Assembly (NCBI GenBank): GCA_965237725.1
Contig: OZ250151.1
Coordinates: 2,951,883-3,015,882 of the forward strand
Source of the DNA: Candidatus Spongiihabitans sp.
GTDB lineage: Bacteria > Pseudomonadota > Gammaproteobacteria > Arenicellales > Poriferihabitantaceae
Direction: 5' to 3'
Length of the DNA: 64,000 nt
Under the pieces are notes generated by a model. It was given only the letters and a program-made list of their open reading frames with translations. It was not told the origin of the DNA and made no database searches. Each line of letters begins with the position of its first letter. The first letter of the stretch is position 1. Positions 9,189 to 60,023 of this stretch are shown here, piece after piece. Made by a program: the position numbers and the translations under genes.

Positions 9189-9406
9189 TTTTAAATTAGA
9201 TGAATCTTGAGATATGTGAATAGAAATTAATGATTATTTTAACAACCTATTTTGCCTGCAACATTCGAAAGGACGCAATAGCGGCTATATTAATTTCAAA
9301 CAGCTGCAATGAACTTTTAAAAGACTCCGCAGGTGAACCTATAATTGTTGGAGTCCTGGGGATGGAGTTGCTTGTAAATCTATTCTTGAACTGATAGCTT
9401 ATTTTC

Positions 9407-25423: not shown

Positions 25424-25432
25424 AACTTAATA

Positions 25433-27729: not shown

Positions 27730-27740
27730 AGCGATGAAAT

Positions 27741-28529: not shown

Positions 28530-28545
28530 GTCAATCTCGTAAATT

Positions 28546-36035: not shown

Positions 36036-36064
36036 GGTATTTACCGAGAATTATATATAGAGGA

Positions 36065-36991
36065 ATGGGAATAATAATATTGGAAAATCAGTTAAGCGAA
36101 ATTCTACCGCAAATTTGTGACTTCTTTGGCATCGGTGAGTTACGCCATCGGCGTGATGGTGGTGGTTATGCGAACACCAACCTCATCGTCGAGACGTCAA
36201 AGGGAAGTTATTTCATCAGATTTTCCCAGGAACATTCTTTAGAGCAAATTGAATCAGAATTATTGGTTATAAAACACGTATTCATTCACGGCATACCAGT
36301 CCCCACCCCAATTACGGCAATAGATGGCGAATCAACATTCAAAGTCCAAAATGGTTTGGTATCTGTTTTTAAGTTTGTCGAGGGGGAATCCAGTGAGACG
36401 GTTAGCCCATCGGGAATAATCGAAATCGCCCGGACGTTGGGAAAACTGCATTGTGTTGAATACGACCACTTGCCTCATAGAGAGACTTGGTGGACTCCAA
36501 CTTATTTAGAAGACAATTTGCCTCGGGCAAAAACATTGTTCGAATATGAAAATGTAAAAAAATTAAGTGACCGGATCGCATCTTTGCCCAAAATGGACTT
36601 AAAAAAATTACCGCGAGGTATCGTTCATGGCGATCCATGGCCAAATAATGCATTGTTTTATGATGATGAATTTGTTGCCTTGGTTGACTGGGAAGAAACT
36701 ACAGTAGGCTACCCAATATATGACCTGGTTTATTTGGCTATACATGGCTGTTTTCCCGAGGATCGTTTTGATCCGGAATTATTCCAGTCTGTTTTGCAGG
36801 CATATGAGGTGGTGCGCAAGCTTAATACCTATGAACGGAAATGTATGGTCCCTATAGCTCAACGCATAGCGTGCACCAATTCTCTTTGGTTGTTACTAAA
36901 ACAACAAGGCGCCGAAATAGATTTCGAGCCTATGGACTATTCTGATTGGTACTGGGGTTTGGGACTGGAAAATTTAGGCTCTGAATGTTAA
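36065..36991 (+). CDS. Phosphotransferase-family kinase (APH / homoserine-kinase type II-like)
   Basis: Brenner motif GIVHGDPWPNNALF and LVDWEETT. I prefer the ATG at 36065, because the TTG at 36029 would overlap the divergent HAD gene. Confidence 0.75.
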   Translation: MGIIILENQLSEILPQICDFFGIGELRHRRDGGGYANTNLIVETSKGSYFIRFSQEHSLEQIESELLVIKHVFIHGIPVPTPITAIDGESTFKVQNGLVSVFKFVEGESSETVSPSGIIEIARTLGKLHCVEYDHLPHRETWWTPTYLEDNLPRAKTLFEYENVKKLSDRIASLPKMDLKKLPRGIVHGDPWPNNALFYDDEFVALVDWEETTVGYPIYDLVYLAIHGCFPEDRFDPELFQSVLQAYEVVRKLNTYERKCMVPIAQRIACTNSLWLLLKQQGAEIDFEPMDYSDWYWGLGLENLGSEC

Positions 36992-38553: not shown

Positions 38554-39408
38554 CTAAATCGCGGTTGATCGCGCGAATTCAATATAAATTCCCCGCAATT
38601 TGTTGGTGATATTTCCGGGAGTACCACTGCCAATGGTCTTATCGTCTACACTGGTGACAGGCAGAACATAACTCGAAGCACCCGAAATAAACGCCTCGTC
38701 GGCGACATAAACCTCTTCCAGACTCACGCTTCTCTGATCCAGCATTATTTCGCCAGAATCACAAAGTTCGATCAATGCGCTACGCGTGACACCTGGTAGG
38801 ATGTCATTGCTCAGCGGACGAGTGATTATGGTATTGTCTTTTATGATGAAAAAGCTGGTTGCGCCACATTCGGTAATCATACCGTCTGGCCCGATCATTA
38901 AAGCTTCATAGGCGCCATGATCATGGGCAGTTTGTTTTGCCAGTACCTGACCCAGCAGGTTCACAGATTTTATATCCCGGCGCGCCCAGCGAATGTCTTC
39001 TACACTTTTCAGACTCACGCCAGTTTTGGCGTATTCATTTTCAAGCGATGGCTTTTCCTGGGTAAACATGAATACCGTTGGCGACAAAATTTCGCTATAA
39101 ATAAAATCTCTTTCTTCAGGGCCCCGTGTCACCTGCATATATACCAGCCCTTCTTCAAGATTATTGAGTTGAATCATTTTCCGAAAAATGCTGAGCAACT
39201 CGGTGCTATCCAAGGGCTGGGGAATATTTAGCTCGCCCAATGATCTCGACAGACGAGCCATGTGGCTATGGAAATCGAGTAATTTTCCATCGATGACCCC
39301 TGCAACTTCATATACCGCGTCACCGAATAATACTCCGCGATCAAATATTGAAACCTGGGCTTGTTCGGGCGGAATGAATTCGCCGTTTAAATAAACTATT
39401 CTTTTCAT
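38554..39408 (-). CDS. D-amino-acid transaminase (PLP fold type IV)
   Basis: FDRGVLFGDAVYEV, DIKSVNLLGQVLAKQ (Lys) and ECGATSFFIIKDN; 284 aa. Confidence 0.85.
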   Translation of the reverse strand: MKRIVYLNGEFIPPEQAQVSIFDRGVLFGDAVYEVAGVIDGKLLDFHSHMARLSRSLGELNIPQPLDSTELLSIFRKMIQLNNLEEGLVYMQVTRGPEERDFIYSEILSPTVFMFTQEKPSLENEYAKTGVSLKSVEDIRWARRDIKSVNLLGQVLAKQTAHDHGAYEALMIGPDGMITECGATSFFIIKDNTIITRPLSNDILPGVTRSALIELCDSGEIMLDQRSVSLEEVYVADEAFISGASSYVLPVTSVDDKTIGSGTPGNITNKLRGIYIEFARSTAI

Positions 39409-39421
39409 TATTCTGGATGAC

Positions 39422-40864
39422 TTAATGGGTCAGAAATTTCCCACCGCGTTTGCCTGTTGATGCCTGAGATTGCCAAGTAACATCACCATTCACCCAAACC
39501 GTGTGAATACCATCAGCAAGTTGAGTCGGGTTTTCGAAATCACTGCGGTCGATAATTTTTTGTGAATCGAACAAAACCATGTCAGCAAAATTACCCTGTT
39601 CAATTGTTCCTCGATTTTTCAAACCAAAGGTTTTTGCAGAAAGTCCGGTCATTTTGTGAACGGCTTGTTCGAGTTTAAACAATTTTTTATTTCTGACATA
39701 GTGCCCGAGTACCCGTGGGAATGTGCCCCAAAGTCTGGGGTGTGGAAACTTCATGGTTGGTAATCCATCTGAGCCAATCATTGCTGCGGGATGGGACATG
39801 ATTCGCTCGAGATCGCCGTCATCCATTTGATAGTAAATGGCCGAGGCGGGATAGAGTTTTTCTGCGGCGTCTACTAGTGAGCATTGCCATTCCGCAGCAA
39901 TTTTATCGAGCATCCAGCCATTGTATTCAGGGTAGGGCGTGGACTCAGCGACCAGTATGGCCTCGGAGCCGGCGATAAAATTGGGTAACAGCGAGGTTGC
40001 GCTTGCAGTATAAGGGTATACGTCGAACATCACATTTTGCTGGTTTTGCCGCGCCGCATCGATAGCCGCGAGAGTTTCCACGGATCGACCGTAATTTTTC
40101 GGCCCAGCGCATTTGTGGTGAGATATGACAATTGGCGCCTCCGACTTCCGGCCGATCTCAAGGGTTTCCTCAATAGCGGCCATGATTTCATCGCCTTCAT
40201 CACGCATATGGGTGACATAAAGCGCGTTATCGAACTCACGCAGTACCGATGCGATTTCTATCACCTCTTGAGTGGGGGCGGCTGCAGCTATGGGATAATC
40301 GAGCCCCGTGCTAAAACCGATGCACCCCTGTTTCAGCGCTAGTTGTAGCGATTTTTTCATTGTTGCAATGTCCGAACTCGTGGCGGGCTGTTCCATACGG
40401 TCGGACATCACATTGTGACGCAGTGAGCTGTGGCCAGCTAGTAATGCAACGTTCACCGCCGCGGGTTTTTTTCTCAGTGCCGATTGGTAGTCTTTTACAG
40501 TCTGAAATTGAAACTCTGCTGAGGTACCAAGCATGGGCAATGGGGCAGGGAATGTCTCCGCCCTAATCATCGGTGCTGCGCTTATCCCGCAATTACCGAC
40601 AATCACCGTAGTCACGCCCTGGGAAATTTTCGCCGGCAAATCCGGGGTTGCAATCACCGCCAGGTCATCGTGAGTATGAACATCGATGAAACCTGGAGCG
40701 AGAACAAGCCCGGTTGCATCAATGGTTTTTTCCGCTTCCCAGTTTTCACATGAACCAACAGCTTCAATCTTGTCAGCGCTAATAACAACGTTGGTTTTCC
40801 GGGTAGGGTTACCGGTTCCGTCAACAATACTTGCACCACTAATTTTTAGATCACATTTTTCCAT
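39422..40864 (-). CDS. N-acyl-D-amino-acid deacylase-family amidohydrolase (D-aminoacylase-like)
   Basis: 480 aa. N-terminal beta-sandwich plus LAPGFIDVHTHDD metal motif. SDGLP and FADMVLFD at the C-terminus are typical of D-aminoacylases. Confidence 0.85.
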   Translation of the reverse strand: MEKCDLKISGASIVDGTGNPTRKTNVVISADKIEAVGSCENWEAEKTIDATGLVLAPGFIDVHTHDDLAVIATPDLPAKISQGVTTVIVGNCGISAAPMIRAETFPAPLPMLGTSAEFQFQTVKDYQSALRKKPAAVNVALLAGHSSLRHNVMSDRMEQPATSSDIATMKKSLQLALKQGCIGFSTGLDYPIAAAAPTQEVIEIASVLREFDNALYVTHMRDEGDEIMAAIEETLEIGRKSEAPIVISHHKCAGPKNYGRSVETLAAIDAARQNQQNVMFDVYPYTASATSLLPNFIAGSEAILVAESTPYPEYNGWMLDKIAAEWQCSLVDAAEKLYPASAIYYQMDDGDLERIMSHPAAMIGSDGLPTMKFPHPRLWGTFPRVLGHYVRNKKLFKLEQAVHKMTGLSAKTFGLKNRGTIEQGNFADMVLFDSQKIIDRSDFENPTQLADGIHTVWVNGDVTWQSQASTGKRGGKFLTH

Positions 40865-40918
40865 TATTTTGACGATTGATTGAATAATAAAGTTATTTTT
40901 ACCCAGAGCTGGCTGGAT

Positions 40919-42103
40919 CTATTCTTTGATATATAACTTTCTCGGTACATCAGCCAAAGTTTCAGCGCCCTTGTCGGTTACCACGAAGCTTTCTGTGATT
41001 TCCATTCCCCAGTCGTCCTGCCAAACTGCAGGAATGAAGTGAAAAGTCATGCCTGGTTCTAGTACAGTTTCATCACCCGGCCGCAAGCTCATAGTACGTT
41101 CACCCCAGTCGGGCGGGTAAGATATTCCGATAGGATAACCGCAGCGACTTTCTTTTTTAATTCCGGTTTGATTTTCTAGAATCGTACAAAATGCTTCTGC
41201 AACTTCCTGACACTGATTTCCCGGTTTGGCTTTTTCCAGGCCCGCATTAATGCCTTCAACTACAGCTTTTTCTACGTCGAGAAATTTTTGTGATGGCTTG
41301 CCAAGAAATATTGTTCGCGAGGTTGGGCATTGATAACGTTTATAGGCCCCTGCAATTTCGAAAAAGGTGGCTTCGCCAGATATAAATGGATCGTCGTTCC
41401 AGGTAATGTGGGGTGCCGAGGCATCTGCTCCTGAGGGTAGTAGGGGCACGATGGCAGGATAATCGCCGCCATATCCGTCTACACCCATGCAACCCGAGTG
41501 AAAGATTTCTGCAACCATTTCATTTTTTCGAAGCCCGGGTTCGATTCGTTCCAGAATATTGGCGTGCATGGTAGTGACAATTTTCCCTGCAATTTTCATG
41601 TACTCGATTTCGGTTTCACTTTTCACAGCCCTCTGCCAGTTAACCAGACTCGTTGCGTCAACAAAGTTGGTTTTAGGCAGACCATTTACCAGCTCAGCAT
41701 GGGCCTGGGCCGAATACCAGTAATTATCCATTTCCACCCCAATGGTGCCGTCAGCCATGTTTCTTTGATTTAGTACCGAAACGAGTTCCTGCATGGGGTG
41801 AAGGGGCAGGTTCTGAACCAGTGATTCGTGGTAGCCGTGCACGTCTTCATCGGGCATCCAAACTGTACGCAAACCACCATTGGCATCCTGGGCGCGTACA
41901 TAACAAAGCGGATTGCCTTCCATAGCCAGGACGACGCATTGGTGGACGTAGAACGACCAGCCATCATATCCGGTAAGCCAGCCCATGTTCGATGGATCGC
42001 TGACAATCAGGGTATCGAGATTGCGTTGGGCCATCTCGGCACGAGTTTTTGCAATCCGGGCATCGTACTCGGATCGTTCGAACGGAAGATTAGTTGAAGT
42101 CAT
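40919..42103 (-). CDS. M24-fold (creatinase/prolidase-type) hydrolase with substituted metal ligands; creatinase- or ectoine-hydrolase-like
   Basis: 394 aa with an N-terminal creatinase_N-like domain (FERSEYDARIAKTRAEM, DPSNMGWLTGYDGWSFY) and a C-terminal pita-bread domain (FFEIAGAYKRYQCPTSRT, LEPGMTFHF). See the finding on ligand substitutions. Confidence 0.8.
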   Translation of the reverse strand: MTSTNLPFERSEYDARIAKTRAEMAQRNLDTLIVSDPSNMGWLTGYDGWSFYVHQCVVLAMEGNPLCYVRAQDANGGLRTVWMPDEDVHGYHESLVQNLPLHPMQELVSVLNQRNMADGTIGVEMDNYWYSAQAHAELVNGLPKTNFVDATSLVNWQRAVKSETEIEYMKIAGKIVTTMHANILERIEPGLRKNEMVAEIFHSGCMGVDGYGGDYPAIVPLLPSGADASAPHITWNDDPFISGEATFFEIAGAYKRYQCPTSRTIFLGKPSQKFLDVEKAVVEGINAGLEKAKPGNQCQEVAEAFCTILENQTGIKKESRCGYPIGISYPPDWGERTMSLRPGDETVLEPGMTFHFIPAVWQDDWGMEITESFVVTDKGAETLADVPRKLYIKE

Positions 42104-42395: not shown

Positions 42396-43751
42396 CTAGT
42401 GCAAATCTTTAAAGCTGTTTGAAATCGCTTGTTCGAAAAATGCCACATCTTCCATCTGTATACAAAGGGGTGGGCAAATGCGTAAGACATTTTTATGCGC
42501 CCCGGATTTGCTCGCAACCAGGCCGTGTTTTCGGGTTAGTTGAAAAAGTTCGTGCATTTCGTCTGGGGCGGGCTCTTTAGTTTTTCTGTCTTTGACCAGC
42601 TCTGCAGCCATCATCAGTCCTCGGCCGCGAACATCGCCAATAATTTTATATTTCTTTTGAAGATCCTTGAGTACCTCGAGCATGGCAGCGCCAACTTGTT
42701 TTGCATTTTCAATTAACTTGCACTCATCAATCACGCGCAGAACCGCCCGGCCGGCGGCACAGCTAACAGGATTGGCGCCATAGGTATTAAAATAAAACTT
42801 GGTCGCCATGGCTTCTGCGATATGTCGTTTAGCCACCACCGCGCCCAATGGATAACCATTTCCAATACCCTTTGCCACCACCATGATATCAGGAACAATA
42901 TCATGGGATGTAAACGCCCAGTAGTCCTCTCCAGTGCGTCCAAAACCTGACTGGACTTCGTCAACGATGAACACGCCACCCGCAGCATGAACCCGCTCCT
43001 GGGCGCCGGATAAGTATCCTTTTGGCAGGGGGACTATTCCGCCATAACCCTGGATGGGCTCGATAAACATCCCCGCGAGTTGCCCAGATGTACCATAGAG
43101 GATGGTTCGATCGAGGTCATCGAGATAGGGCTGAACCCCTTCGCCGTGTATACCACGATACTGATCGGGATTTGAAGTAAACTGAATGCCATTGAGCAGG
43201 GAAATGTTGTGGCGAAAATTGCTTATACCCGTCACAGATTGGGCGCCAAAAGTGGCACCGTGATAGCTATTGGCCAGAGAAATAATGTCGTTGTTACCGG
43301 TGTGGGATCGGGCAAGTAACAATGCGAAGTCTATGGCTTCGGCGCCGCTATTCATAAAGTGGACGACCCACTCTTCGCCCTGAGGCATTTTTGAAGTGAG
43401 CTCTTCAGCGAAGTGTGCCGGCACGGGATGAAAAAACATGGTGGTGCAATGCTGGATTTGCTCTGCCTGATGCTGGACTGCGGCAGTCACCGCTGGGTTG
43501 TTGTATCCAATGCTGACACACAGATTTTGACTCAAACAATCGAGATATTGATTTTCTTTTTCGTCCCACAAATACTGGTCCTGACCGCGTTTAAAAATCA
43601 ATGGTGTCTTGTAGGGCACAAATGCGCGCTGAGATGCAGCATAAAATTTGTCCCGACGATTTACAATGGCGTCGGTATCCCAATCGGTTTCCAGGGTAAA
43701 GTTATCGATGTCTGCTTTTATAGTGTCAGAAATTTTTGTGGTTGTTTTCAT
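42396..43751 (-). CDS. Class III (omega) aminotransferase
   Basis: 451 aa. NSGAEAIDFAL, FIVDEVQSGFGRTG and VVAKGIGNGYPLGAV (PLP Lys). Confidence 0.9.
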   Translation of the reverse strand: MKTTTKISDTIKADIDNFTLETDWDTDAIVNRRDKFYAASQRAFVPYKTPLIFKRGQDQYLWDEKENQYLDCLSQNLCVSIGYNNPAVTAAVQHQAEQIQHCTTMFFHPVPAHFAEELTSKMPQGEEWVVHFMNSGAEAIDFALLLARSHTGNNDIISLANSYHGATFGAQSVTGISNFRHNISLLNGIQFTSNPDQYRGIHGEGVQPYLDDLDRTILYGTSGQLAGMFIEPIQGYGGIVPLPKGYLSGAQERVHAAGGVFIVDEVQSGFGRTGEDYWAFTSHDIVPDIMVVAKGIGNGYPLGAVVAKRHIAEAMATKFYFNTYGANPVSCAAGRAVLRVIDECKLIENAKQVGAAMLEVLKDLQKKYKIIGDVRGRGLMMAAELVKDRKTKEPAPDEMHELFQLTRKHGLVASKSGAHKNVLRICPPLCIQMEDVAFFEQAISNSFKDLH

Positions 43752-43796: not shown

Positions 43797-44669
43797 TCAA
43801 TCCATTAGCCCGTCAGACCTTAAGCGCTGTTGGTCATGGGCTGTAGTGGTCTTGCCATACAATTGCTGCACCCGTTGTTTGCTACCGACAATATTAGGCT
43901 CCTCGGTAAACGACATGATAATTAATAACCGATCATCATCTCCGGTATTTTCGGTAACCTGGTGCAGGGAATACCTGCCGAGAAAAAATTGCAGGTCCCC
44001 GGGTTGCAGGTCGAGGCGTTTTACCCGGCTGCTTTTGCCACTGAGCACATCAGCTACCGTATCGTATTCCTCGCTGGCGGACGAGCGAATATTGGGCGCG
44101 TATTCGAAATAACCACCACTGCTGGCGGGTTTGAGCAACATGGTGATGGTGAATTCATTGGTATCAAAATGCCAGTTAAACCGCGATCCTGGCGTACCCA
44201 CATTAACAATCATATTGGATATGGGATCAGCATAAATATGCAATTCGGGTTTGCCCAGGCAATCTGCGAGGAACTGAATTAAGGGTTGCCAGTGGTACAA
44301 CTGCCAGGAAGTTGAATCTGCTTCAAACAGATCGCTGGTAATAAAGCCATTGGTTCTTTCCATCATGATGTTAACCGGGTGGTTTTGATCCAGCGCCGGA
44401 TCCGGTGCAGAGAAATATGCATTGGTAATATTCTGATCCGAAAAATAAGCCTGGGCTCGACGCTCATATGCTTCGCCCAAAATGGTGTTCAACCCATAGT
44501 CACTTAGAAATCCTTTTAGCAGCGCGCAGCCATCCTCGCCCAGGCTGGTCCGTACACCGTCAATTACCTGCTGGCGAGCGGAATTATGGATCTCGTCGAT
44601 GGGATATTTTTTGTAATCGATTAATTCGCGACAGTTCACTGGATTAAGATCTCTAGGTAATAAGTTCAA
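43797..44669 (-). CDS. Fe(II)/2-oxoglutarate-dependent oxygenase (hydroxylase-type facial triad)
   Basis: 290 aa. H-x-D in SRFNWHFDTNE, distal His in RYSLHQV, and an Arg/Ser pair in DDRLLIIMSF. The subfamily is not identifiable by eye. Confidence 0.6.
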   Translation of the reverse strand: MNLLPRDLNPVNCRELIDYKKYPIDEIHNSARQQVIDGVRTSLGEDGCALLKGFLSDYGLNTILGEAYERRAQAYFSDQNITNAYFSAPDPALDQNHPVNIMMERTNGFITSDLFEADSTSWQLYHWQPLIQFLADCLGKPELHIYADPISNMIVNVGTPGSRFNWHFDTNEFTITMLLKPASSGGYFEYAPNIRSSASEEYDTVADVLSGKSSRVKRLDLQPGDLQFFLGRYSLHQVTENTGDDDRLLIIMSFTEEPNIVGSKQRVQQLYGKTTTAHDQQRLRSDGLMD

Positions 44670-44684: not shown

Positions 44685-45335
44685 TTAGCTCAAGCAACCT
44701 TCTATATAAAGGTCACAATATTTTTTTGCCTGCTTTATGGTCAGATCGTCTTTTCCTGTGGCCAGACTGTTCCACAATCCATCATCGAGAATATACAGGC
44801 CCACCGCCGCCTTTTTTGGATCAATTTCGATTTTTTGATCCGCTGCGGCTTGCTCGAACAACGGCGCAACAAGGGCATTGGAATACTTGCTGGCATCGCG
44901 TATCGGCTTAGCATATGCGGGGTTATGTCGACTGGCATTAGTAAAAGCCTGCCACGCCGCTGCGGTTTCCCAGGAATAGGATGGGTTGGCAAAACTCGAA
45001 TAGGCGATTTGTTTAATTTTATCTACCGCGGTAAGAGAATTGTCTTCGGAGATTTGTTTTTTTATACCCAAAGCCATATCAAACCAGTTGGTCAAGGCCG
45101 CTAGCAGCAATTCTTCCTTGCTATCAAAGTAATGGGCAATTAATCCCCGGGATGCGCCGGCCTGGGCACAAATCCTTTCCACCGTAGCACCGGCAATATC
45201 ATATTTGGCAACGGTAATTATGGCTGCATTGAGCAGGCTTGTTTGCCGGTATTCTCGATTCTCTGCCTGGGTGCGTCGCCGGGGCGGGGATTTGACTTCG
45301 TTGGATGACGAAGCCTGCTGGAAATTTGGATTCAC
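44685..45335 (-). CDS. TetR-family regulator (BetI-like)
   Basis: HTH ATVERICAQAGASRGLIAHYFDSKEELL. It is the first gene of the minus-strand operon and is divergent from the MttB-family gene. Confidence 0.85.
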   Translation of the reverse strand: MNPNFQQASSSNEVKSPPRRRTQAENREYRQTSLLNAAIITVAKYDIAGATVERICAQAGASRGLIAHYFDSKEELLLAALTNWFDMALGIKKQISEDNSLTAVDKIKQIAYSSFANPSYSWETAAAWQAFTNASRHNPAYAKPIRDASKYSNALVAPLFEQAAADQKIEIDPKKAAVGLYILDDGLWNSLATGKDDLTIKQAKKYCDLYIEGCLS

Positions 45336-45385
45336 GATTGCCTGGTGTTTATTTAAAGGTTGCCAAAAAACATTGGACAGTCATC

Positions 45386-45402
45386 ATAATAATGGCTATT
45401 AT
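45386..45402. promoter_or_regulatory. Candidate TetR operator in the divergent promoter region
   Basis: ATAATA-atggc-TATTAT is a perfect 6-5-6 palindrome nested in ATTGGA...TCCAAT. It lies midway between the tetR start (45335) and the mttB-like start (45458). Confidence 0.35.
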
Positions 45403-45457
45403 CCAATAAAATCATTGTAGTATCAAGATTAATATTACAGCAGGTTTATAACCGAAT

Positions 45458-47011
45458 ATGACCAAAGCAGTAAAAAGTTCACGACGCAGCGGGCGCACCG
45501 GGGGTAGAAAAAGCCGACAGGCTGAACGCAGCTCTCCTACTATCGTACGCTTCCCGTATATCGCCAGAAAAATCGCGACCTATGACGTGCTTAGCGAAGA
45601 AGGGTTATGTCTAATTGAACAAAATGCCAATAAGCTACTCAAGGAAATTGGTATGGAGTTTACCGATGACCCGGAAATTCTGGCTTTGTTTAAAGACGCT
45701 GGCGCCGATGTACAGGGAACCCGGGTAAGATTTGATTTTGATCATCCACGCCAGATTATCCAGGCCACCGCGCCGTCACAGTTTACTCAACACGCTCGCA
45801 ACCCCGAGAACAGTGTGGTTCTCGGTGGCAACAATACCGTGTTCGGGCCATCCTGGGGTCCACCCTTCATTCATAATCTGGACGAAGGTCGGCGCTATGC
45901 CACGCTGGAAGATTTTCACAAGCTGGTGAAAATTCACCAGATGATTCCATGGTTGCATCATTCCGGCGGCATTGTCTGTGAGCCCACAGATCTCCCGGTG
46001 AACAAGCGCCATCTCGACATGTTGCTGGGACACTTTCGTTATAGTGATCGAGGTTGTTTTGGCGGTTTGATTGGCGCCGAGCGAGCACAGGATTCGGTCA
46101 ACATGGCAAAGATTTTATTTGGCGAAGAATTTGTTGATCAGAATTGTGTGCTCTATTCTGTGGCCAATACTAATGCGCCCCTGGTACTTGATGTTGCCAT
46201 GTCCGGCGCACTCAAGACCTATGCGGCCAATAACCAGGCCGTGGCCTGTACCCCCTGGACCCTGGCCGGAGCGATGAGCCCCTGTACCGTTGCTGGCACG
46301 CTGGCTCAGGTGCTGGCAGAAACCATGGCGGTATGCGCACTGACCCAATTGGTTAGGCCTGGTGCGCCCTGCCTGATGGGGAGTTTTGCTACCGCCATTT
46401 CCATGCAAACCGGCGCGCCTACCTTTGGCAACCCCGAAGGTGCAAAACTGGTACTCTCGGCAGGGCAATTAGCGCGACGACTGGGTGTGCCGTTTCATAC
46501 CGTGGGGGCACTTTCCGCTTCCAAACTGCCCGATGGTCAGGCCGAACAGGAAGCCACTATGGGATTGACCATGGCGGTACTTGCCGGTGCTAATTTTATT
46601 AATCATTCCACCGGCTGGCTCGAAGGTGGTCTGGTGACCGGATTTGAAAAGACCATACTCGACGCTGATTTATGCGGCAAGATTATCGACTTCTGCCAGG
46701 GAATCGATCTATCCACCGAAGCCCAGGCCCTGGAAGCCATCGCCGAGGTTGGCCCTGGGGCGCATTTTCTGTCGAGCCAGCATACCCTGTCTAATTTCGA
46801 AAATGCGTTCTATATGTCTAACGTCGCAGACAGCAATTCCTATGAACAATGGAGTTCTGAAGGCGAGCTGGATGCGGCCCAGCGCGCCAATAAAGTCTGG
46901 AAAAATTATCTGGAAAGTTATGAAGAACCTGTGCTCGATCCTGGGAAGCTGGAAGCCCTTGAAGAATATGTCATGACACGCAAGAATTCCATGCCCGATA
47001 TGAACTACTGA
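45458..47011 (+). CDS. MttB-superfamily methyltransferase, non-pyrrolysine member (quaternary-amine methyltransferase-like)
   Basis: 517 aa, uninterrupted from ATG to TGA with no in-frame TAG. Length and motifs (IHQMIPWLHHSGG, NTNAPLVLD, GAPTFGNPEGA, FINHSTGWLEGGL) fit the trimethylamine-methyltransferase TIM-barrel family. Confidence 0.85.
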   Translation: MTKAVKSSRRSGRTGGRKSRQAERSSPTIVRFPYIARKIATYDVLSEEGLCLIEQNANKLLKEIGMEFTDDPEILALFKDAGADVQGTRVRFDFDHPRQIIQATAPSQFTQHARNPENSVVLGGNNTVFGPSWGPPFIHNLDEGRRYATLEDFHKLVKIHQMIPWLHHSGGIVCEPTDLPVNKRHLDMLLGHFRYSDRGCFGGLIGAERAQDSVNMAKILFGEEFVDQNCVLYSVANTNAPLVLDVAMSGALKTYAANNQAVACTPWTLAGAMSPCTVAGTLAQVLAETMAVCALTQLVRPGAPCLMGSFATAISMQTGAPTFGNPEGAKLVLSAGQLARRLGVPFHTVGALSASKLPDGQAEQEATMGLTMAVLAGANFINHSTGWLEGGLVTGFEKTILDADLCGKIIDFCQGIDLSTEAQALEAIAEVGPGAHFLSSQHTLSNFENAFYMSNVADSNSYEQWSSEGELDAAQRANKVWKNYLESYEEPVLDPGKLEALEEYVMTRKNSMPDMNY

Positions 47012-47136
47012 TTGAAATTTTAATTTTTAACAATGCTTGCAAACTTGGGCCTTCCCTGCAGCCCCAGAAATTCCCATTACGATGTCCTACGAGATGAGAT
47101 AATCTCACCGAATATAACAAATGATCGAATTAAACG

Positions 47137-49569
47137 ATGAATAATTCAAACAAGCATATTGTAATTATCGGTGGCGGTGCTGCTGGGCTGAGTACCGCAT
47201 ACCACCTTGGCAAGCTGGGCTGCCCCAATGTTTTGCTTCTGGAACGCAACGAATTAACCAGTGGCACGTCCTGGCATGCGGCGGGAATTGTTGGGCCGCT
47301 GCGGGCCAGTCAGAATCTAACCACCCTGGCCAAATATGCCATTGAGTTATTTCCGAAACTCGAAGCCGAGACCGGTCAGGCCACAGGCTATAAACAAACC
47401 GGTGGATTGTGGTTAACCCAGGAGCACCACCGAATAACCGAGTTGAAACGCATTGCCGCCATGGGGGAAATGAACGATTTGCATGGCGAGTTTCTGACCC
47501 CGGGTGAAGTCAAGGAAAGATTTGACATGATCAATGTCGATGATCTGGCTGGGGCAATGTGGCTGGAACAGGACGGCCAGGTCAACCCAGTGGATATGTG
47601 TATGGCGTTTGCTAAAGGGGCTCGCGCTAATGGGGTAGAAATTCGCGAGCAGGCAGGTGTTGCCGCTATTGATGTTGACAATGGTATGGCCAGGGCGGTG
47701 GTGCTGGATTCCGGAGAGCGCATGGAATGTGACATCATCGTCAACTGTGCAGGACTGTGGGCCCGGCATATTGGCGAACTCGCCGGGGTGAATGTGCCAT
47801 TACATGCGGTTGAGCATATGTATGTTGTCAGTGAGCCGATTCCCGAAATGCCATTACCCTGGCCGGTTATTCGTGATATGGAGGGGGCGCTGTATATCAA
47901 GGAAGATGCCGGGAAACTGGTGCTCGGTGTGTTTGAACCCAATGCCAAATTATGGGACCACAAAAGTGTAAACCCAAAATCATCGTATATGATTTTTGAA
48001 GAGGATTGGGATCACATCGAACCAATGATGATAAGTGGGATTAACCGTATTCCCAGATTCGAAACCTTAGGGTTAACTCATTTTATGACCGGACCGGAAA
48101 GCTTTACCCCGGATACCAAACAGTTAATGGGGATTTCATCCGAGGTCGAAAATTTCTATGTCGCCGCCGGATTTAATTCTCTGGGTATTATGTCGTCGCC
48201 TGGCGTAGGCAAAGCGATGGCAGACTGGGTTGTCCAGGGTAGATCGCCCATCGATTTGTGGGAGGTAGATATTGCCCGATTCCAGCCCAAAGATAATGAC
48301 ATCGATTTTCTCCACACTCGAATTCCCGAAGCGGTTTCCAATCAATTCGATATGCACTGGCCCAACAAGCAATATAAAACCGGGCGAAATCGAACCCAGT
48401 CTGTCTGGCATGACAAGATGGCTGAACTGGGTGCGGTATTTGGTGGGCTGGCTGGCTGGGAGCGACCTTTGTGGTTTGCTCAAGATGATGAACCAAAACA
48501 ACTGGAATACAGTTATAGCGACCAGAACTGGTGGCCGGTAGCCATGCGGGAATCCAAGATGCTGGAGAAATCTGGGGCGTTATTTGAATTGTCACCATTC
48601 ACAAAAATTATGGTGGAAGGCGGCGATGCTACGGCGGCGATGCAATGGCTATGCACCAATAACATTGACGTCGAAGTGGGGAAGGTGGTGTATACCCTGA
48701 TGTTGAATGACGCCGGTGGGATTGAAGGCGAAATAACCGTGTCGCGACTGTCACAGGATCAATACTTATTGATAACAGCATCAGCAACCCGGGCAAAAGA
48801 TATTGCCTGGATTGATCGAAACAGCAGAAGTTTTGATGTTTCCATATCCGACATAACCGACAACTTTTCTGTGCTTGGTGTTATGGGACCAAATTCTAAA
48901 TCCCTGATGGAAAAGATTTGTGATGATCAATTTGATGTTGACCAATTCCCATTTGGTCGAACAAAGTTGTTAAGTATTGACGAAAAGGAAGTTCGTGGAT
49001 CGCGCTTAAGTTTTGTCGGTGAGCAGGGCTGGGAATTATTAATCCCAAATGAGTGTGCAATACAGATATTTGAAACGGTTGTAGAAGAAGCACAAAAACT
49101 CGACATGGGCATGGCCGGATTTCTGACCATGGAATGTTGTCGTCTTGAAAAAGGTTATCTGCACTGGGGTCATGATATTGGCCCGGAGGAAAATCCCTAC
49201 CAGGCTGGCCTCGGATTTGCGGTTAAGCGAAACAAGCCTGGAGGATTTTTGGGGCTCGGTGGGTTAACCAAACTGGTTGATGCCGGAATTACCCAAAAAC
49301 TGGTGTTGTTCGAGGCTATTGATTCACGACCGTTATTGCTTCACGATGAGCCATTATTCCTCAACGATAAATGGGTTGGCAGAACCACTTCAGGGGGAAT
49401 GGCCATGCGTACTGATAAACCGCTGTGTTTTGGTTATGTTGACACGACATTGGTTGGCGACAATATTGCAGGCACAAAGTTTACCGTACAGGTCCAGGGT
49501 GAGATGCATAATTTGATCGCCCTAGGGAAACCACCTTACGATCCCCAAGGTCAGCGGATGCGGGGATAA
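47137..49569 (+). CDS. FAD-dependent oxidoreductase with C-terminal GcvT/folate domain (dimethylglycine/sarcosine-dehydrogenase-like), copy 1
   Basis: 810 aa. IVIIGGGAAGLSTAYHL dinucleotide fold, covalent-FAD motif GTSWHAAGI, and C-terminal FVGEQGWELLIP and RLEKGYLHWGHD (aminomethyltransferase fold). Confidence 0.9.
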   Translation: MNNSNKHIVIIGGGAAGLSTAYHLGKLGCPNVLLLERNELTSGTSWHAAGIVGPLRASQNLTTLAKYAIELFPKLEAETGQATGYKQTGGLWLTQEHHRITELKRIAAMGEMNDLHGEFLTPGEVKERFDMINVDDLAGAMWLEQDGQVNPVDMCMAFAKGARANGVEIREQAGVAAIDVDNGMARAVVLDSGERMECDIIVNCAGLWARHIGELAGVNVPLHAVEHMYVVSEPIPEMPLPWPVIRDMEGALYIKEDAGKLVLGVFEPNAKLWDHKSVNPKSSYMIFEEDWDHIEPMMISGINRIPRFETLGLTHFMTGPESFTPDTKQLMGISSEVENFYVAAGFNSLGIMSSPGVGKAMADWVVQGRSPIDLWEVDIARFQPKDNDIDFLHTRIPEAVSNQFDMHWPNKQYKTGRNRTQSVWHDKMAELGAVFGGLAGWERPLWFAQDDEPKQLEYSYSDQNWWPVAMRESKMLEKSGALFELSPFTKIMVEGGDATAAMQWLCTNNIDVEVGKVVYTLMLNDAGGIEGEITVSRLSQDQYLLITASATRAKDIAWIDRNSRSFDVSISDITDNFSVLGVMGPNSKSLMEKICDDQFDVDQFPFGRTKLLSIDEKEVRGSRLSFVGEQGWELLIPNECAIQIFETVVEEAQKLDMGMAGFLTMECCRLEKGYLHWGHDIGPEENPYQAGLGFAVKRNKPGGFLGLGGLTKLVDAGITQKLVLFEAIDSRPLLLHDEPLFLNDKWVGRTTSGGMAMRTDKPLCFGYVDTTLVGDNIAGTKFTVQVQGEMHNLIALGKPPYDPQGQRMRG

Positions 49570-49572
49570 CAA

Positions 49573-51996
49573 ATGAAATCCCATGCCCAGGTCGTAGTCA
49601 TCGGTGGTGGCATCATGGGCTGCTCGCTGATTTATCACTTGACCAAATTTGGCTGGACCGATGTTGTCCTGGTAGAAAAAAATGAATTAACTGCCGGCTC
49701 GACCTGGCATGCGGCGGGGCTTTGCACCCACTATGCCCATAACATCACAGTAATGAATTTACGCGCCCACAGCGTAAAATTGTACAGCGGCATACTCGAA
49801 GCTGAAACCGGCCAGGCGGTGAGTTTCCATTCCACTGGGGCATTGAGAGTGACCACTAAAGCGGACCGCATGGATGAATTTCGCCACGTCCAGGGGCTGG
49901 GGAAATTTGCCGGTCACGATTTTAATATTTTAAACCCTGAAGAACTGAAAGCAATTTATCCACTGGTCAATACCGAGGGACTGCTTGGCGCGATTCATGA
50001 GCCCTATGATGGCTATGTGGATCCCAGCCAGGCCACCCACGCCATGGCAAAAGGTGCGCGGGACCGTGGTGCAGAGATCAATCGAAATAATCCCGTTGAA
50101 GGCATCGAACGCGTGGGTGGCGAGTGGCTGGTTCATACGAAGAACGGTGATATTCGGGCTGAACATATTGTTAACGCAGCAGGAACCTGGTGTCGCGAAA
50201 TTGGCACCATGATGGGAGTGGATCTGCCCGTGGTGCCGATGCTGCATCAATACATGGTCTTTGATCGAATTGAGGCATTTGCTAAAATTGAAAATGAAAT
50301 GCCATTTATCCGCGACCCGGATGAAAGTTGGTACCTTCGCCAGGAGAGGGATGGTGTGATTTTGGGGCCTTATGAGAAGAATGGAACTCCCTGGTCCATC
50401 GACGGTGTTCCGCCGGAATTTGGAATGGAGTTGTTGCCCCCTGAACTGGAACGCATCGAAGATATTGCTGGGGATTGTATGGCTCGGGTCCCTGCGGTTG
50501 CCGAAGGCGGAATTAAGAGTATTGTCAACGGTCCCATTACATTTACTCCGGACGCCAATCCCATGATTGGGCCAGCATTCAATCTGCCTAACGCCTGGGT
50601 ATTAACCGGTTCGAGTATGGGGGTAATGGAAGGGGGAGGGTCCGGTCAGTTTCTGGCCCAGTGGATTATTGGCGGCGAACCACCGGCAGATGCCCTGGCT
50701 ATTGATTCTCGACGCTTTGGCGGTTACGCCGATCGGGACTATCGAGTCGACAAGGCAGTAGAATGTTTCGCCGCCCAGTTTGGAATTCATTACCCCTACG
50801 AAGAACGCCCGGCTGGTCGGAAAAAACGGGTTACGCCAATCTATGACAGATTAAAGGCGTTGGGTGCGGTTTTTGGGTCCGCCTACGGCTGGGAGCGACC
50901 AAACTGGTTTGCACGAAACGGTAACGATGCATATGAAACCGAATCTGAATTGAGCTTTCAGCGCTGTAACTGGTTTGAAGCAGTTGCCGAAGAATGTCGT
51001 TGTGTTAGTGAGAACGTGGCGATTGCTGATGTAAGCGTGTTTAGTAAATTTAATATTACCGGTCCCCAGGCGAACCAGTTTATGGATTCCCTCGGTGCCA
51101 ATAGAGCGCCGGAGGTTGATGGAGAAATTAATCTCAATCACGTGCTCACACCTGGTGGCGGCGTTGCTTCAGAATTTTCTGTTACCAGGGTGGGGGACAA
51201 TCATTATTATCTGGTTTGCGCCGCCGCCGCTGAGCGCCATGACGAAGATCTGCTTCGTAACCGCGCTTCAGCATTTTCCGGGGTCGAAATTGAGAATGTC
51301 ACCGAGAAATTGGGCGTGCTTGGTGTGATGGGACCCAACGCTTGCAAAGTGTTAAGCGAGTTAAGCGCCACAGAATTTTCTCCATCCGGATTTCCCTGGC
51401 TAAGCGCCCAGAAAATTATTGTTGCCGGCATTGAAGTAGTAGCCATGCGGGTTTCCTATATCGGCGAGCCCGGGTGGGAGCTACACCATAGTGTTGAGCA
51501 TCAGGCAAATTTGTTCGATCAACTGTGGCAGGCGGGAGAAAAATATCAGATGGGTTTATATGGTGCTTTCGCCATGAACGCCATGCGTCTGGAAAAAGGC
51601 TATCGAGCCTGGGGTACGGAATATACGACAGAGCGCACACCATTGGAGGCGGGGAGTGGGATGTTTGTAAAGACAACGGATCGAGATTTCATCGGCAAAG
51701 CCAGTATGCTTCAGCGCCACCAATCACCAGATCACTGGCATATGCATTTGCTGGAAATTGCGGACACAGGAGAAGATCCGTTTTACGCCCATACGGTTTT
51801 AAATAATGGTCAGCCCGTTGGAATTGTCACCTCGGGCGCATACGGCCACCGAGTTCAGAAACCGCTGGCACTAGCCTATTTCAGTAAGCAACCCGATGAC
51901 GCTGAACTAAAGGTTGAAATTTTAGGAAAAAATGTCCCAGCAAGAATTTTGAAAACGCCACCTTACGATTGTAAAAACAAGTTAATGCGCGAGTGA
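49573..51996 (+). CDS. FAD-dependent oxidoreductase with C-terminal GcvT/folate domain (dimethylglycine/sarcosine-dehydrogenase-like), copy 2
   Basis: 807 aa. VVVIGGGIMGCSLIYHL, GSTWHAAGL, YIGEPGWELHH and RLEKGYRAWGTE. Starts 3 bp after copy 1. Confidence 0.9.
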   Translation: MKSHAQVVVIGGGIMGCSLIYHLTKFGWTDVVLVEKNELTAGSTWHAAGLCTHYAHNITVMNLRAHSVKLYSGILEAETGQAVSFHSTGALRVTTKADRMDEFRHVQGLGKFAGHDFNILNPEELKAIYPLVNTEGLLGAIHEPYDGYVDPSQATHAMAKGARDRGAEINRNNPVEGIERVGGEWLVHTKNGDIRAEHIVNAAGTWCREIGTMMGVDLPVVPMLHQYMVFDRIEAFAKIENEMPFIRDPDESWYLRQERDGVILGPYEKNGTPWSIDGVPPEFGMELLPPELERIEDIAGDCMARVPAVAEGGIKSIVNGPITFTPDANPMIGPAFNLPNAWVLTGSSMGVMEGGGSGQFLAQWIIGGEPPADALAIDSRRFGGYADRDYRVDKAVECFAAQFGIHYPYEERPAGRKKRVTPIYDRLKALGAVFGSAYGWERPNWFARNGNDAYETESELSFQRCNWFEAVAEECRCVSENVAIADVSVFSKFNITGPQANQFMDSLGANRAPEVDGEINLNHVLTPGGGVASEFSVTRVGDNHYYLVCAAAAERHDEDLLRNRASAFSGVEIENVTEKLGVLGVMGPNACKVLSELSATEFSPSGFPWLSAQKIIVAGIEVVAMRVSYIGEPGWELHHSVEHQANLFDQLWQAGEKYQMGLYGAFAMNAMRLEKGYRAWGTEYTTERTPLEAGSGMFVKTTDRDFIGKASMLQRHQSPDHWHMHLLEIADTGEDPFYAHTVLNNGQPVGIVTSGAYGHRVQKPLALAYFSKQPDDAELKVEILGKNVPARILKTPPYDCKNKLMRE

Positions 51997-52944: not shown

Positions 52945-53865
52945 CTATTTTCTAACTGCAATTAATCCGGCACTAGCGATCAGAATCATACCGAGAATGG
53001 TTAAGCCATCGGGAACTTCCGCAAAAATAGTTATACCCCAAAGTGCGCTAAATGCCAGATAAGAATAATCAAATGACGCCACTATGGAAGAAGGTGCATT
53101 TTGGTATGCGATTGCTGAAAATAGACTACCCAGGATTATTACAATTCCGAGTACACTCATGGCCAGCCATTTTTTGGCGTCCAGGTGGGTCCAGTCTCCC
53201 AGCAAAAACGGATTTAAAGTTTTGATTGAATCTTCAGGTGACCAGATTGAAAGCACGATTGTTGCTACTGCGCCCATTGCAATGAAAGTGAAGTTCAGAG
53301 TTAACGAAAGAATTTTTGGATTTTCGTGTAAACATTTTGTACGTGTCAGTATCATCGCCAGTGAATAAAGTATCGCCGCGATCAGGGGCAAAAGAACATA
53401 GCCATTAAAACCATCTGTGTCCGGTCGGACTATGATTAGCACCCCGGTAAATCCAATTATGATTGCCGCCCATGATTTTAATCCTACCTTATCTCCCGTG
53501 AACATCGCAGAAAATAAGGTAATGAACAATGGGATGGTGTAGTACACCGCCGCAGCTACAGATAAATCGATGTGGGGCAGTGCTGTGTAGTATGCCACCC
53601 ACATACATGCCAACAACAGGCTTCTGATTGATGTCCAGCCTGGAAACTTCGGCATTAGTGAAAGCTGAGGCTCGCGCAGTTTAATAATCCCAATCAATAT
53701 GGGTACTGCGATCGCGGATCGGATCACATAGATTTGCCACAGCGGAAACGACACGCTGAGAAGTTTGATGATGGCATCCCCAAATGAAAGTGCAAAAACC
53801 GCAAGTAGAATAGAAAAAATTGCGAGCCTGACATTGTCAGGCTGACTACTGTTTTGAGGACCCAT
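52945..53865 (-). CDS. DMT-superfamily (EamA-type) transporter
   Basis: 306 aa with about 10 TM helices in two EamA-like halves. Confidence 0.85.
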   Translation of the reverse strand: MGPQNSSQPDNVRLAIFSILLAVFALSFGDAIIKLLSVSFPLWQIYVIRSAIAVPILIGIIKLREPQLSLMPKFPGWTSIRSLLLACMWVAYYTALPHIDLSVAAAVYYTIPLFITLFSAMFTGDKVGLKSWAAIIIGFTGVLIIVRPDTDGFNGYVLLPLIAAILYSLAMILTRTKCLHENPKILSLTLNFTFIAMGAVATIVLSIWSPEDSIKTLNPFLLGDWTHLDAKKWLAMSVLGIVIILGSLFSAIAYQNAPSSIVASFDYSYLAFSALWGITIFAEVPDGLTILGMILIASAGLIAVRK

Positions 53866-59252: not shown

Positions 59253-60023
59253 TTAACTTGAAGGCAGTTTTTGGATAAACCGTTGCTGGTCCGAGACTTT
59301 ACCATCACTATTGTAATCAATCTCTACAATATCAATCTCATTTTCACTATAAAGCAAATAGGTTGTGGTTCGGGTGCCGTAACCTTCGCCATGAATAAAT
59401 ATTGATGACAAATGTTTTTCCACTTCCACCCCCACCCCGGTATGTGGCAGATCATCCACTTCGGCTTTGGTTTGGTCATGCATGATTTTATTTAGTTCAT
59501 CAATTTCAATAGGCTGGTTGCTGCCCACAAGTTCGGTTAACTTTTGAACCCCAGATGACATTTTTGGCCAGTGTTCATCCACACTGCCATTGGACAGGCT
59601 ATGGCAGCCATCGGACAAGCCATGCAAAGACCCGTCAATGCTGGAAAAAATCTGAATTGATGTTAGTGAACCAAGAACCAGATTAAATGGATTGTAGTTG
59701 CTATAGTTGGTATTTAGATGGGAAATGAATTGCTGTTCTGTCTCTTTGCCATCGAGATAACGTCGAACCAGCTCACCCCGGCTTATTGCGGTTTCGTTTG
59801 CCGGATTACCTGTTCGAAAATTAGTCACCGCACAAAAATGTCCCAATGTATTTACCCCAAGCCAGCTTCCACCTTTCAATCCATCTCTTCCGGCCAGGAT
59901 GTGGGGATAGTCAGGCCAGTGATGCATAGACTGGGAGGGGCGTCCATAATCTTCATCCCGATTGGCAGCGACAATTAGCGGATAATTCGGGTGTTGATTA
60001 ATTGCCAGGAAGAGTATGCACAT
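59253..60023 (-). CDS. NRDE-family protein (TANGO2 homologue, DUF833)
   Basis: MCILFLA...PLIVAANRDE N-terminal nucleophile-type motif; 256 aa. Confidence 0.85.
   Translation of the reverse strand: MCILFLAINQHPNYPLIVAANRDEDYGRPSQSMHHWPDYPHILAGRDGLKGGSWLGVNTLGHFCAVTNFRTGNPANETAISRGELVRRYLDGKETEQQFISHLNTNYSNYNPFNLVLGSLTSIQIFSSIDGSLHGLSDGCHSLSNGSVDEHWPKMSSGVQKLTELVGSNQPIEIDELNKIMHDQTKAEVDDLPHTGVGVEVEKHLSSIFIHGEGYGTRTTTYLLYSENEIDIVEIDYNSDGKVSDQQRFIQKLPSS

Follow-up and report, generated by a model that had tools for sequence, protein, structure and literature searches.

The window analyzed here is a stretch of 64,000 nucleotides of Candidatus Spongiihabitans sp. (contig OZ250151.1, positions 2,951,883 to 3,015,882 of the forward strand). 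We focus on four of its genes: an MttB-family methyltransferase gene (gene 1), two genes for flavoproteins related to dimethylglycine dehydrogenase (DMGDH) and sarcosine dehydrogenase (SARDH), called G2 and G3, and a divergent class-III aminotransferase gene, AT3. This four-gene set is real, and it is conserved in many marine, sponge-associated, and soil bacteria. Judging from gene content and motifs, the module most likely removes all three methyl groups of a betaine-like nutrient, and after them the amino group. We hold with moderate confidence that it is a conserved, horizontally mobile plug-in module for the full N-demethylation and deamination of a quaternary-ammonium osmolyte, and that its corrinoid system would be encoded elsewhere. 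Its MttB proteins form what we call the His-clade, a hitherto undescribed variant of a known B12-dependent methyltransferase family. The module as a whole is widespread, can be diagnosed from sequence, and stands apart by its altered binding site, its conserved transaminase, and cofactor genes that are consistently unlinked. The module is not a wholly new kind of system, because aerobic MttB-family demethylation followed by DMGDH-type demethylases is already known. No paper was found that describes the four-gene module.

The module and its recurrence across genomes

An earlier model reading of the letters alone (the sequence-only reading) had described three co-directional genes with gaps of 125 bp (gene 1-G2) and 3 bp (G2-G3), the first encoding a 517-aa MttB protein without an in-frame TAG. 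The open reading frame (ORF) coordinates and the PF06253 match agreed with this description. The gene 1 protein matched the PF06253 MTTB profile over positions 1-500 of 500 with 678 bits, a full-length TIM-barrel match, and its ORF contained neither an internal stop nor an in-frame UAG. Against TIGR02369, the model of the pyrrolysine (Pyl) type, it scored 240.8 bits, below the equivalog cutoff of 525. The Pyl-equivalent position, which had been singled out for inspection, holds an ordinary residue: Pyl334 of M. barkeri MttB (7XCL) aligned with Leu352. In the PDB, the best match was 4YYC (E 1e-177, 62% identity as read from the alignment), D. hafniense MtgB (DhMtgB, 2QNE/9YCE) scored ~350 bits, and 7XCL only 110 bits.

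G2 and G3, the two ~810-aa paralogues, each showed the DAO+FAO_M+GCV_T+GCV_T_C architecture, with a C-terminal GcvT domain and the His motif for covalent flavin adenine dinucleotide (FAD). All four motifs quoted in the sequence-only reading were present: GTSWHAAGI at nt 47263 and FVGEQGWELLIP at nt 49012 in G2, and GSTWHAAGL at nt 49696 and YIGEPGWELHH at nt 51457 in G3. The two proteins are about 30% identical. Of the two, G3 comes closer to the mammalian enzyme, with 662 bits against human DMGDH (5L46); G2 scored 439 bits against rat/human DMGDH. The dyad His225/Tyr259 of the oxidase DMGO, inspected in G2, is kept there: H227 and the Tyr of GALYIKE align with it, and the flavinylation His is kept as well. 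Thus G2 and G3 resemble mammalian and Arthrobacter DMGDH, SARDH, and DMGO in their four domains, covalent-FAD His, His/Tyr dyad (G2), and GcvT-type tetrahydrofolate (THF) domain. They differ in forming separate groups, at most ~44% identical to any annotated homologue outside the module, and their substrates are predicted ones. A characterized relative of G2, such as MABO, was sought on annotated plasmids, where its best relatives were uncharacterized proteins with 36-42% identity.

The best PDB match of AT3 was human ETNPPL (6TOR, 279 bits, 38% identity), ahead of racemases (~223-237 bits), GABA transaminases (~167-184), and a taurine transaminase (155), and its best NCBIfam matches were kinase-aminotransferase fusion models. 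ETNPPL, the nearest solved relative of AT3, is a member of the AGXT2 family. In the lyases ETNPPL and PbfA, the gateway Arg (GabT R398) is replaced by a Lys, and ETNPPL has a His at the R141 position (PMC8154272 supplement). AT3 shares the residues binding pyridoxal phosphate (PLP) with this branch, including the catalytic Lys, but it has kept the gateway Arg (NVLRICPPL) and has Ala at GabT-R141 and Tyr at E211. The signature was common to 46 of 47 orthologues, with Ala or Pro at the R141 position. This is the pattern expected of a pyruvate- or glyoxylate-using omega-type transaminase. Since the gateway Arg is kept and the ETNPPL His/Lys pair is lacking, AT3 does not look like a phospho-lyase, and the omega-transaminase label proposed from the sequence alone stands on the gateway Arg and the catalytic Lys signature. 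R. pomeroyi SPO1567 was tried as a counterpart of AT3. It is strongly induced, but it lies beside malate thiokinase and phosphoenolpyruvate carboxylase and is a serine-cycle enzyme.

The gene 1 protein had more than 8000 database homologues. Its closest relatives (81-84% identity) came from metagenome-assembled genomes (MAGs) of marine or sponge-associated Gammaproteobacteria, including Arenicellales and 'Ca. Poriferihabitaceae'. The 68-72% tier also included alphaproteobacterial MAGs, and Luminiphilus/Halieaceae, Roseibium, Pannonibacter, and Roseovarius followed at 55-64%. A scan of species-representative genomes yielded 80 loci, and all flanking ORFs were clustered. Genomic context was compared for 71 orthologues, namely 50 genome loci of the His-clade and 21 of a second group, the Arg-clade; a second and partly overlapping sample, from metagenome contigs, comprised 29 His-clade and 51 Arg-clade loci. 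Across the 71 orthologues the motif split was perfect: [W/F/Y]HHG went with an AT3/G2/G3 context and YRHG with a context of Mtg partners. PDB 4YYC carries YRHG and is thus an Arg-clade protein. Both clades were monophyletic in a neighbor-joining tree rooted on DhMtgB, and gene 1 fell into the His-clade, the sister clade of the MtgC-linked enzymes (50-61% identity to gene 1). Median identity amounted to 70% among His-clade members and 84% among Arg-clade members, and to 55% across the two clades.

The module recurred in ~50 genome loci of Arenicellales/'Ca. Poriferihabitaceae', other Gammaproteobacteria, and Alphaproteobacteria. Complete chromosomes with a His-clade module include OZ243931.1, OZ243962.1, OZ241969.1, and OY760176.1. 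Its order is AT3< [TetR or LysR<] MTTB> G2> G3>, with AT3< G2> G3> MTTB> as an alternative in Alphaproteobacteria. AT3 was present in 39 of the 50 His-clade loci versus none of the 21 Arg-clade loci (Fisher p = 2e-10). MtgC, DUF1638, MtgD, or RamA genes showed the reverse, 0/50 versus 10/21 (p = 8e-7). The metagenome contigs gave the same picture: the 29 His-clade loci had G2/G3 orthologues, AT3 wherever the contig was long enough, and Mtg partners in none (0/29), while most of the 51 Arg-clade loci had MtgC, DUF1638, MtgD, and RamA at their flanks and none had AT3. The distance from the Arg-clade gene to MtgC is ~1 kb or less in S. meliloti, Paracoccus, and Shinella, and ~25 kb on the same replicon in Azoarcus. 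Around distant homologues we identified a PF02607+PF02310 B12-binding protein, DUF1638, a pterin-binding protein, RACo/RamA, and/or a homocysteine methyltransferase, which correspond to the MtgC/MtgD/RamA/MtgE set. The sequence-only reading had proposed that the genes take N+Me3 by way of NMe2 and NHMe to NH2, and that the product could feed the divergent aminotransferase; the recurrent gene order, the clade-specific presence of AT3, and its transaminase-type site all argue for such a functional set.

Mesorhizobium sp. B1-1-8 is the one cultured example of the His-clade among these loci. Its plasmid pB1-1-8 carries AT3< LysR< G2> G3> MTTB(WHHG)>, directly followed by a betaine/proline/choline-family ABC importer, and no MtgC was found on this plasmid. 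The binding protein of the importer matched E. coli ProX with 39 bits only. Inferring a ligand from it was therefore dropped.

G2 and G3 are two stable, separate orthologue groups across the His-clade loci, with 43-72% identity within the G2 group and 45-77% within the G3 group. The identity of G3 to DMGDH-like genes elsewhere, including those by Arg-clade/MtgC clusters, was ~39-44%, and that to the flavoenzyme adjacent to the Arg-clade gene was about 42%. A census of the 147 ORFs within 3.5 kb of His-clade modules gave BetI-type TetR regulators (10), LysR regulators (8), Sulfotransfer_5-like proteins (8), AhpC/redoxin (6), M24 hydrolases (4), Abhydrolase_3 (3), and sulfatases (3). The BetI-type TetR regulator is thus the commonest extra neighbor, and LysR takes its place in other loci.

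Binding site, proposed pathway, and substrate

The structure of DhMtgB with bound glycine betaine, together with mutagenesis, assigns Y97 and F356 to cation-pi contacts and R312 and H348 to the carboxylate (PMC13080624). R312 is reported to be conserved in all characterized members; its substitution by Leu kills activity, and Lys raises the KM about 400-fold (PMC13080624). The corresponding positions in gene 1 are W133, H347, H383, and G391, so that the glycine-betaine tetrad is broken. There are 21 positions fixed differently between the two clades, among them R312H, near the Pyl-equivalent site. The His-clade has also lost aromatics at Dh positions 120 and 272 and gained His124, Asn347 (next to H348), and Lys373. 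His347 of gene 1 lies five residues upstream of the Pyl-equivalent Leu352 and therefore belongs to the catalytic segment. The His-clade has retained both the H348 equivalent and an aromatic residue at Y97, and with these intact the gene 1 protein is probably catalytically competent. It shares fold, family, and the Leu at the Pyl position with DhMtgB, and it differs in R312 to His, F356 to Gly, the lack of an adjacent MtgC or MtgA gene, and an aerobic host.

The most similar known system is MtgBCD(E) of R. pomeroyi, Phaeobacter inhibens, and S. meliloti (PMC12478193). There too, a pfam06253 protein works in an aerobic marine proteobacterium, mtgB may be unlinked, N-demethylating flavoenzymes are often adjacent downstream, and several MttB paralogues lack an assigned substrate. 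The difference is that the MtgC-linked enzymes, 4YYC included, are YRHG proteins of the Arg-clade with ~55% identity, whereas the window protein belongs to the His-clade, which is never Mtg-linked, always has a different pair of flavoenzyme orthologues, and usually has a class-III aminotransferase. The sequence-only reading had allowed that the cluster might be an already characterized glycine-betaine pathway. It does not correspond to one as such, as the enzymes that are characterized or MtgC-linked belong to another clade and carry another signature in the binding site. The E. limosum enzymes MthB, MtyB, MtcB, and MtpB (phosphocholine, gamma-butyrobetaine, carnitine, and proline betaine, respectively), compared by description only, illustrate how paralogues partition quaternary amines, and kinases or EamA genes may adjoin them. 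They remove one methyl group in anaerobic acetogens with clustered corrinoid genes; in the window, in contrast, two oxidative demethylases and a transaminase would complete the degradation.

In the pathway that we propose, the TIM-barrel pocket of the His-clade MttB would bind a trimethylammonium compound and pass one methyl group to the Co(I) of an MtgC-type corrinoid protein. MtgD would then move the methyl group to THF, and a RamA/DUF1638 system would reactivate the oxidized cofactor, with the genes for these proteins located elsewhere as in Ruegeria pomeroyi. G3 and G2 would oxidize the tertiary and then the secondary amine; the leaving C1 unit would be captured on THF by the GcvT-type domain (methylene-THF), and the electrons would go to electron-transferring flavoprotein (ETF). 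These two steps are predicted from family membership and intact catalytic motifs. Finally, AT3 would turn the primary amine into an oxo compound with pyruvate or glyoxylate as acceptor. A BetI-type TetR repressor, or LysR in other lineages, might control the two divergent operons.

Glycine betaine itself is less likely to be the substrate than some other quaternary amine. In this direction point the altered R312, a transaminase of omega type that belongs to the module, orthologue groups of their own for all four proteins, G2 and G3 included, and, in parallel, an MtgC-linked Arg-clade module that has its own flavoenzyme. Our leading guess is one of the omega-(trimethylammonio) acids, for example beta-alanine betaine or gamma-butyrobetaine; in the latter case, the first product would be the same as that of MtyB.

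Several observations weigh against this reading. An MttB protein, a DMGDH-like G3, and a second SARDH-like enzyme are exactly the gene set for converting glycine betaine to glycine, and BetI-type regulators and the occasional sulfatases nearby fit choline/betaine metabolism. Neither an aldehyde dehydrogenase nor a conserved transporter was among the 25 commonest neighbor families in the census of 147 ORFs. MtgC, MtgD, or RamA was found within 10 kb in 0 of ~80 His-clade loci. Moreover, the His-clade could still be a glycine-betaine enzyme, as the two R. pomeroyi MtgB candidates were placed in neither clade.

The strongest alternative, possible though clearly less probable, is accordingly an aerobic glycine-betaine pathway. 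Here MttB would be MtgB, G3 the dimethylglycine dehydrogenase, G2 the sarcosine dehydrogenase, and AT3 an AGXT2-like glycine:pyruvate transaminase that forms glyoxylate and routes glycine carbon to central metabolism. The genes fit the stepwise conversion of glycine betaine to glycine, and G3 is the paralogue nearest to mammalian DMGDH, although this likeness is generic at ~39-44% identity to many paralogues. AT3 is nearest to ETNPPL and has a pyruvate/glyoxylate-type signature, and with glyoxylate as the product no aldehyde dehydrogenase would be needed. The module is accompanied by regulators of the BetI type and by a ProX/OpuA-type importer whose annotation is binding of glycine betaine, and a PNAS 2025 paper places downstream glycine-betaine demethylation genes near mtgB in marine Gammaproteobacteria; there was no mention of Arenicellales or sponges in the PNAS 2025 supplements. 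However, two of the four experimentally defined glycine-betaine-binding residues are changed, including R312, and the same phyla contain the separate MtgC-linked Arg-clade with its own flavoenzyme. We also know of no glycine-betaine catabolic cluster with a class-III aminotransferase.

Corrinoid partner genes and the remaining alternatives

The sequence-only reading had seen no corrinoid protein, activase, or methyltransferase partner in the 64 kb, and both the Pfam and the tblastn searches bear this out. Among essentially all window ORFs of at least 150 aa, Pfam gave no B12-binding, RACo/RamA, DUF1638, Pterin_bind, or S-methyl_trans domain. A tblastn search of the window with MtgC, DUF1638, MtgD, RamA, and MtgE from related loci gave a best E of 0.6, and an Rfam scan of the window found no family above threshold, cobalamin riboswitch included. 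A B12-binding protein and a kinase were likewise absent among the 25 commonest His-clade neighbor families.

Every characterized MttB-family member methylates a corrinoid (PMC13080624, PMC12155760, PMC8604678). Aerobic R. pomeroyi requires MtgC and MtgD, whose genes lie away from both mtgB candidates (Mausz et al. 2025, PMC12478193); the two proteins double as split methionine synthase modules (PMC12478193). In this bacterium SPO2108 and SPO2134 (pfam06253), RamA, and a DUF1638 protein are induced, and all of these genes are scattered over the genome; a single genome may hold as many as seven pfam06253 paralogues, presumably for other methylated substrates (PMC12478193). Because R. pomeroyi mtgC and mtgD lie apart from the mtgB genes, a partner missing from the 64 kb does not mean a partner missing from the genome. 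By analogy, partner genes of the MtgC type are presumably encoded elsewhere in the genome of the window's host. The dependence on a corrinoid is suggested by the characterized family members, by the sister clade with its linked MtgC genes, by the unlinked R. pomeroyi genes, and by one His-clade module (L052) that adjoins a true MtgE orthologue. An orphan MttB gene in a 64-kb window is thus ordinary in principle, given the 2025 work. The sequence-only reading had asked how an MttB-type enzyme would operate without a corrinoid partner in an apparently aerobic context; with the R. pomeroyi precedent, recent literature has mostly dissolved this puzzle, and a remnant is left only for the His-clade.

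MtgC itself (about 230 aa; L071:3130-3825; plasmid hits H31-H45) shares 76-80% identity between Halieaceae on the one side and Sinorhizobium, Paracoccus, and Azoarcus on the other, and is thereby conserved far better than the MttB encoded beside it. This suggests that the corrinoid module is under strong constraint, has spread horizontally, or both. The best 120 database matches of MtgC were all Luminiphilus/Halieaceae variants with at least 94% identity.

A His-clade MttB that works independently of a corrinoid is unlikely. In that case the methyl group would pass directly to THF, perhaps in a complex with the folate-binding flavoenzymes, or to homocysteine, and the unlinked corrinoid genes would be accounted for. 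MtgC, DUF1638, MtgD, and RamA are within 10 kb in none of the ~80 His-clade loci and in most sister-clade loci, the Mesorhizobium plasmid with the His-clade module has no MtgC, and the pocket is remodeled around the Pyl-equivalent site. Three Arenicellales loci also have a ~291-aa MmuM/BHMT-like homocysteine S-methyltransferase ~6 kb from the module (L031:3523-4398, L032:4074-5003, L034:4943-5818). On the other hand, the superfamily offers no precedent, and the demethylation of a quaternary amine needs a supernucleophile, for example Co(I). R. pomeroyi is a documented case of unlinked partners, so that missing linkage is not a missing gene, and the one module by a true MtgE adjoins a protein that itself depends on MtgC and MtgD. 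The 'MtgE-like' genes by the three Arenicellales modules, once taken as such, proved to be members of a different MmuM/BHMT-like family, 28% identical to MtgE. We also consider it improbable that the His-clade comprises the first superfamily members without a dedicated corrinoid protein and that the module is a self-contained, oxygen-tolerant system for the full degradation of a new quaternary amine.

Quite unlikely is a phosphocholine or choline-O-sulfate route, in which MttB would act on an O-esterified choline, G3 and G2 would lead to phospho- or sulfo-ethanolamine, and AT3 would be an ETNPPL-like 1,2-eliminating lyase releasing acetaldehyde, ammonium, and phosphate or sulfate. MthB of E. 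limosum, an MttB-family phosphocholine methyltransferase whose cluster has an APH-like kinase and an EamA transporter, provides a precedent (PMC12155760). ETNPPL is the top homologue of AT3 (279 bits versus at most 237) besides the NCBIfam matches to kinase-aminotransferase fusions, an EamA gene lies downstream, some modules have sulfotransferase-like (8 ORFs) and sulfatase (3 ORFs) genes beside them, and the acid-binding site is altered. These similarities made a phospho-lyase attractive. Nevertheless, the gateway Arg of AT3 is conserved in 46 of 47 orthologues, with Ala or Pro in place of the ETNPPL His at R141, and the lyase function was set aside. Furthermore, no conserved kinase lies near the module, and the two APH genes of the window are 9 and 24 kb off; MthB is reported to keep R312 (PMC13080624). 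These APH-family phosphotransferases (21040-22047 and 36029-36991, both on the + strand) belong to the broad family of choline/hydroxylysine kinases and MthK and are not conserved near the module in relatives. Finally, a chance juxtaposition of common marine catabolic genes without a shared pathway is effectively refuted by the synteny statistics, because order and adjacency are kept in two proteobacterial classes, on a plasmid, and in metagenomes (Fisher p 1e-7 to 1e-11).

Neighboring genes and significance

Table 1. Positions of the module genes and adjacent features in the window
Feature	Position	Strand	Remarks
MttB-family gene (gene 1)	45458..47011	+	517 aa; non-Pyl, His-clade
G2 (gene 2)	47137..49569	+	810 aa; DMGDH/SARDH-family THF-dependent N-demethylating flavoprotein, more divergent paralogue
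G3 (gene 3)	49573..51996	+	807 aa; DMGDH-like THF-dependent N-demethylating flavoprotein
AT3, class-III (omega-type) PLP aminotransferase	42396..43751	-	PF00202; conserved module member
BetI-type TetR-family regulator	44685..45335	-	PF00440+PF13977; divergent from MttB operon
Divergent intergenic control region	45336..45457	.	122 bp
M24/creatinase-fold hydrolase, DoeA/EutD-type, accessory	40919..42103	-	TIGR02993 638.7 bits, cutoff 613
EamA/DMT-family transporter, downstream of G3	52945..53865	-	PF00892

The TetR regulator scored 82 bits against BetI models, under their cutoff. The divergent control region contains back-to-back sigma-70-like sites at 45374-45402 (+) and 45426-45398 (-) with 10 of 12 matches each, site counts that are not above the shuffled expectation. 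A search of this region for operator palindromes gave one weak 9-nt AT-rich palindrome only, and no terminator-like site was found in the 125-bp MttB-G2 gap. The promoter-like sites, whose match numbers are no better than chance, and the terminator-free gap are consistent with two divergent operons. The EamA/DMT transporter is a possible but unproven importer candidate; EamA-like genes recur near AT3 in some relatives (L001; c19/c31).

The AT3 operon of the window is extended by genes for a HalD/BesD-like oxygenase, a DoeA/EutD-type hydrolase, an amidohydrolase, and a D-amino-acid transaminase. The first of these, a 290-aa protein encoded between TetR and AT3 (43797-44669, -), gave a partial match to PF23169, the HalD/BesD-type Fe/2-oxoglutarate amino-acid halogenase/hydroxylase family (E 1e-10), had no NCBIfam match, and is not a recurrent neighbor of the module. 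Downstream of AT3 (38554-42103, -) are the TIGR02993 ectoine hydrolase, a PRK09061-like (D-aminoacylase-like) amidohydrolase, and a D-amino-acid transaminase (PRK06680, above cutoff). They look like an addition to the module for the catabolism of ectoine-like compounds or of N-acyl/D-amino acids. The M24 hydrolase adjoins AT3 only in the window and its four closest relatives (L001, L003, L004, L007), and it is the only one of these additions common to the four.

Other relatives have neighbors of their own. A ~258-aa Sulfotransfer_5 (PF19798)-like protein is encoded directly by AT3 in eight loci (L013, L025, L031, L032, L034, L049, L050, L054); together with the sulfatase neighbors, it might hint at sulfated choline/ethanolamine derivatives. 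An AhpC/TSA-redoxin-like gene (~191 aa) lies immediately 5' of AT3 in six (L035, L037, L038, L043, L055, L059). In L001, an 84%-identical relative, a ParD/ParE toxin-antitoxin pair (L001:9173-9716) separates AT3 from the MttB gene, and the genes for ETF alpha and beta are ~8 kb downstream of the module.

Elsewhere in the window, a 526-aa fusion (11965-13545, +) joins a PNPOx-like and a DmmA-like N-terminal part (a dimethylamine monooxygenase subunit) to NAD-binding and 2Fe-2S ferredoxin domains, and it may be another methylated-amine or oxygenase reductase component. A five-gene acyl-CoA cluster (24533-30165, -) encodes a MaoC-like dehydratase, a family-III CoA-transferase, an acyl-CoA dehydrogenase, a short-chain dehydrogenase/reductase, and a thiamine pyrophosphate-dependent enzyme. 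Positions 1-9200 have a low GC content (0.37-0.42 versus ~0.47 elsewhere), an insertion sequence-type integrase/transposase (3122-3901), a 951-aa triple glycosyltransferase (4522-7377), and DUF4956 and VTC-domain genes (456-1835); they may be a horizontally acquired surface-polysaccharide region. A bacterial TANGO2-family protein (PF05742, E 2e-62) is encoded at 59253-60023 (-).

In the ocean, in soil, and in symbioses between animals and microbes, betaines, choline derivatives, and other quaternary amines are major osmolytes and serve as currencies of carbon, nitrogen, and energy; the first step of their demethylation in aerobes was solved only in 2025, for glycine betaine only. This locus would represent a second module that is widespread and shared by horizontal transfer, with carriers among the Arenicellales of sponges and further marine Gamma- and Alphaproteobacteria and one copy on a Mesorhizobium plasmid. 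Its diagnostic signature (His at R312, two private flavoenzyme groups, and a transaminase) lets annotators of metagenomes drop the label 'trimethylamine methyltransferase', and its four genes are a compact target for the experimental search for a new substrate. If MtgC acts in trans, the cobalamin demand of marine heterotrophs would widen further; if the enzyme does not depend on MtgC, it would represent new methyl-transfer chemistry.

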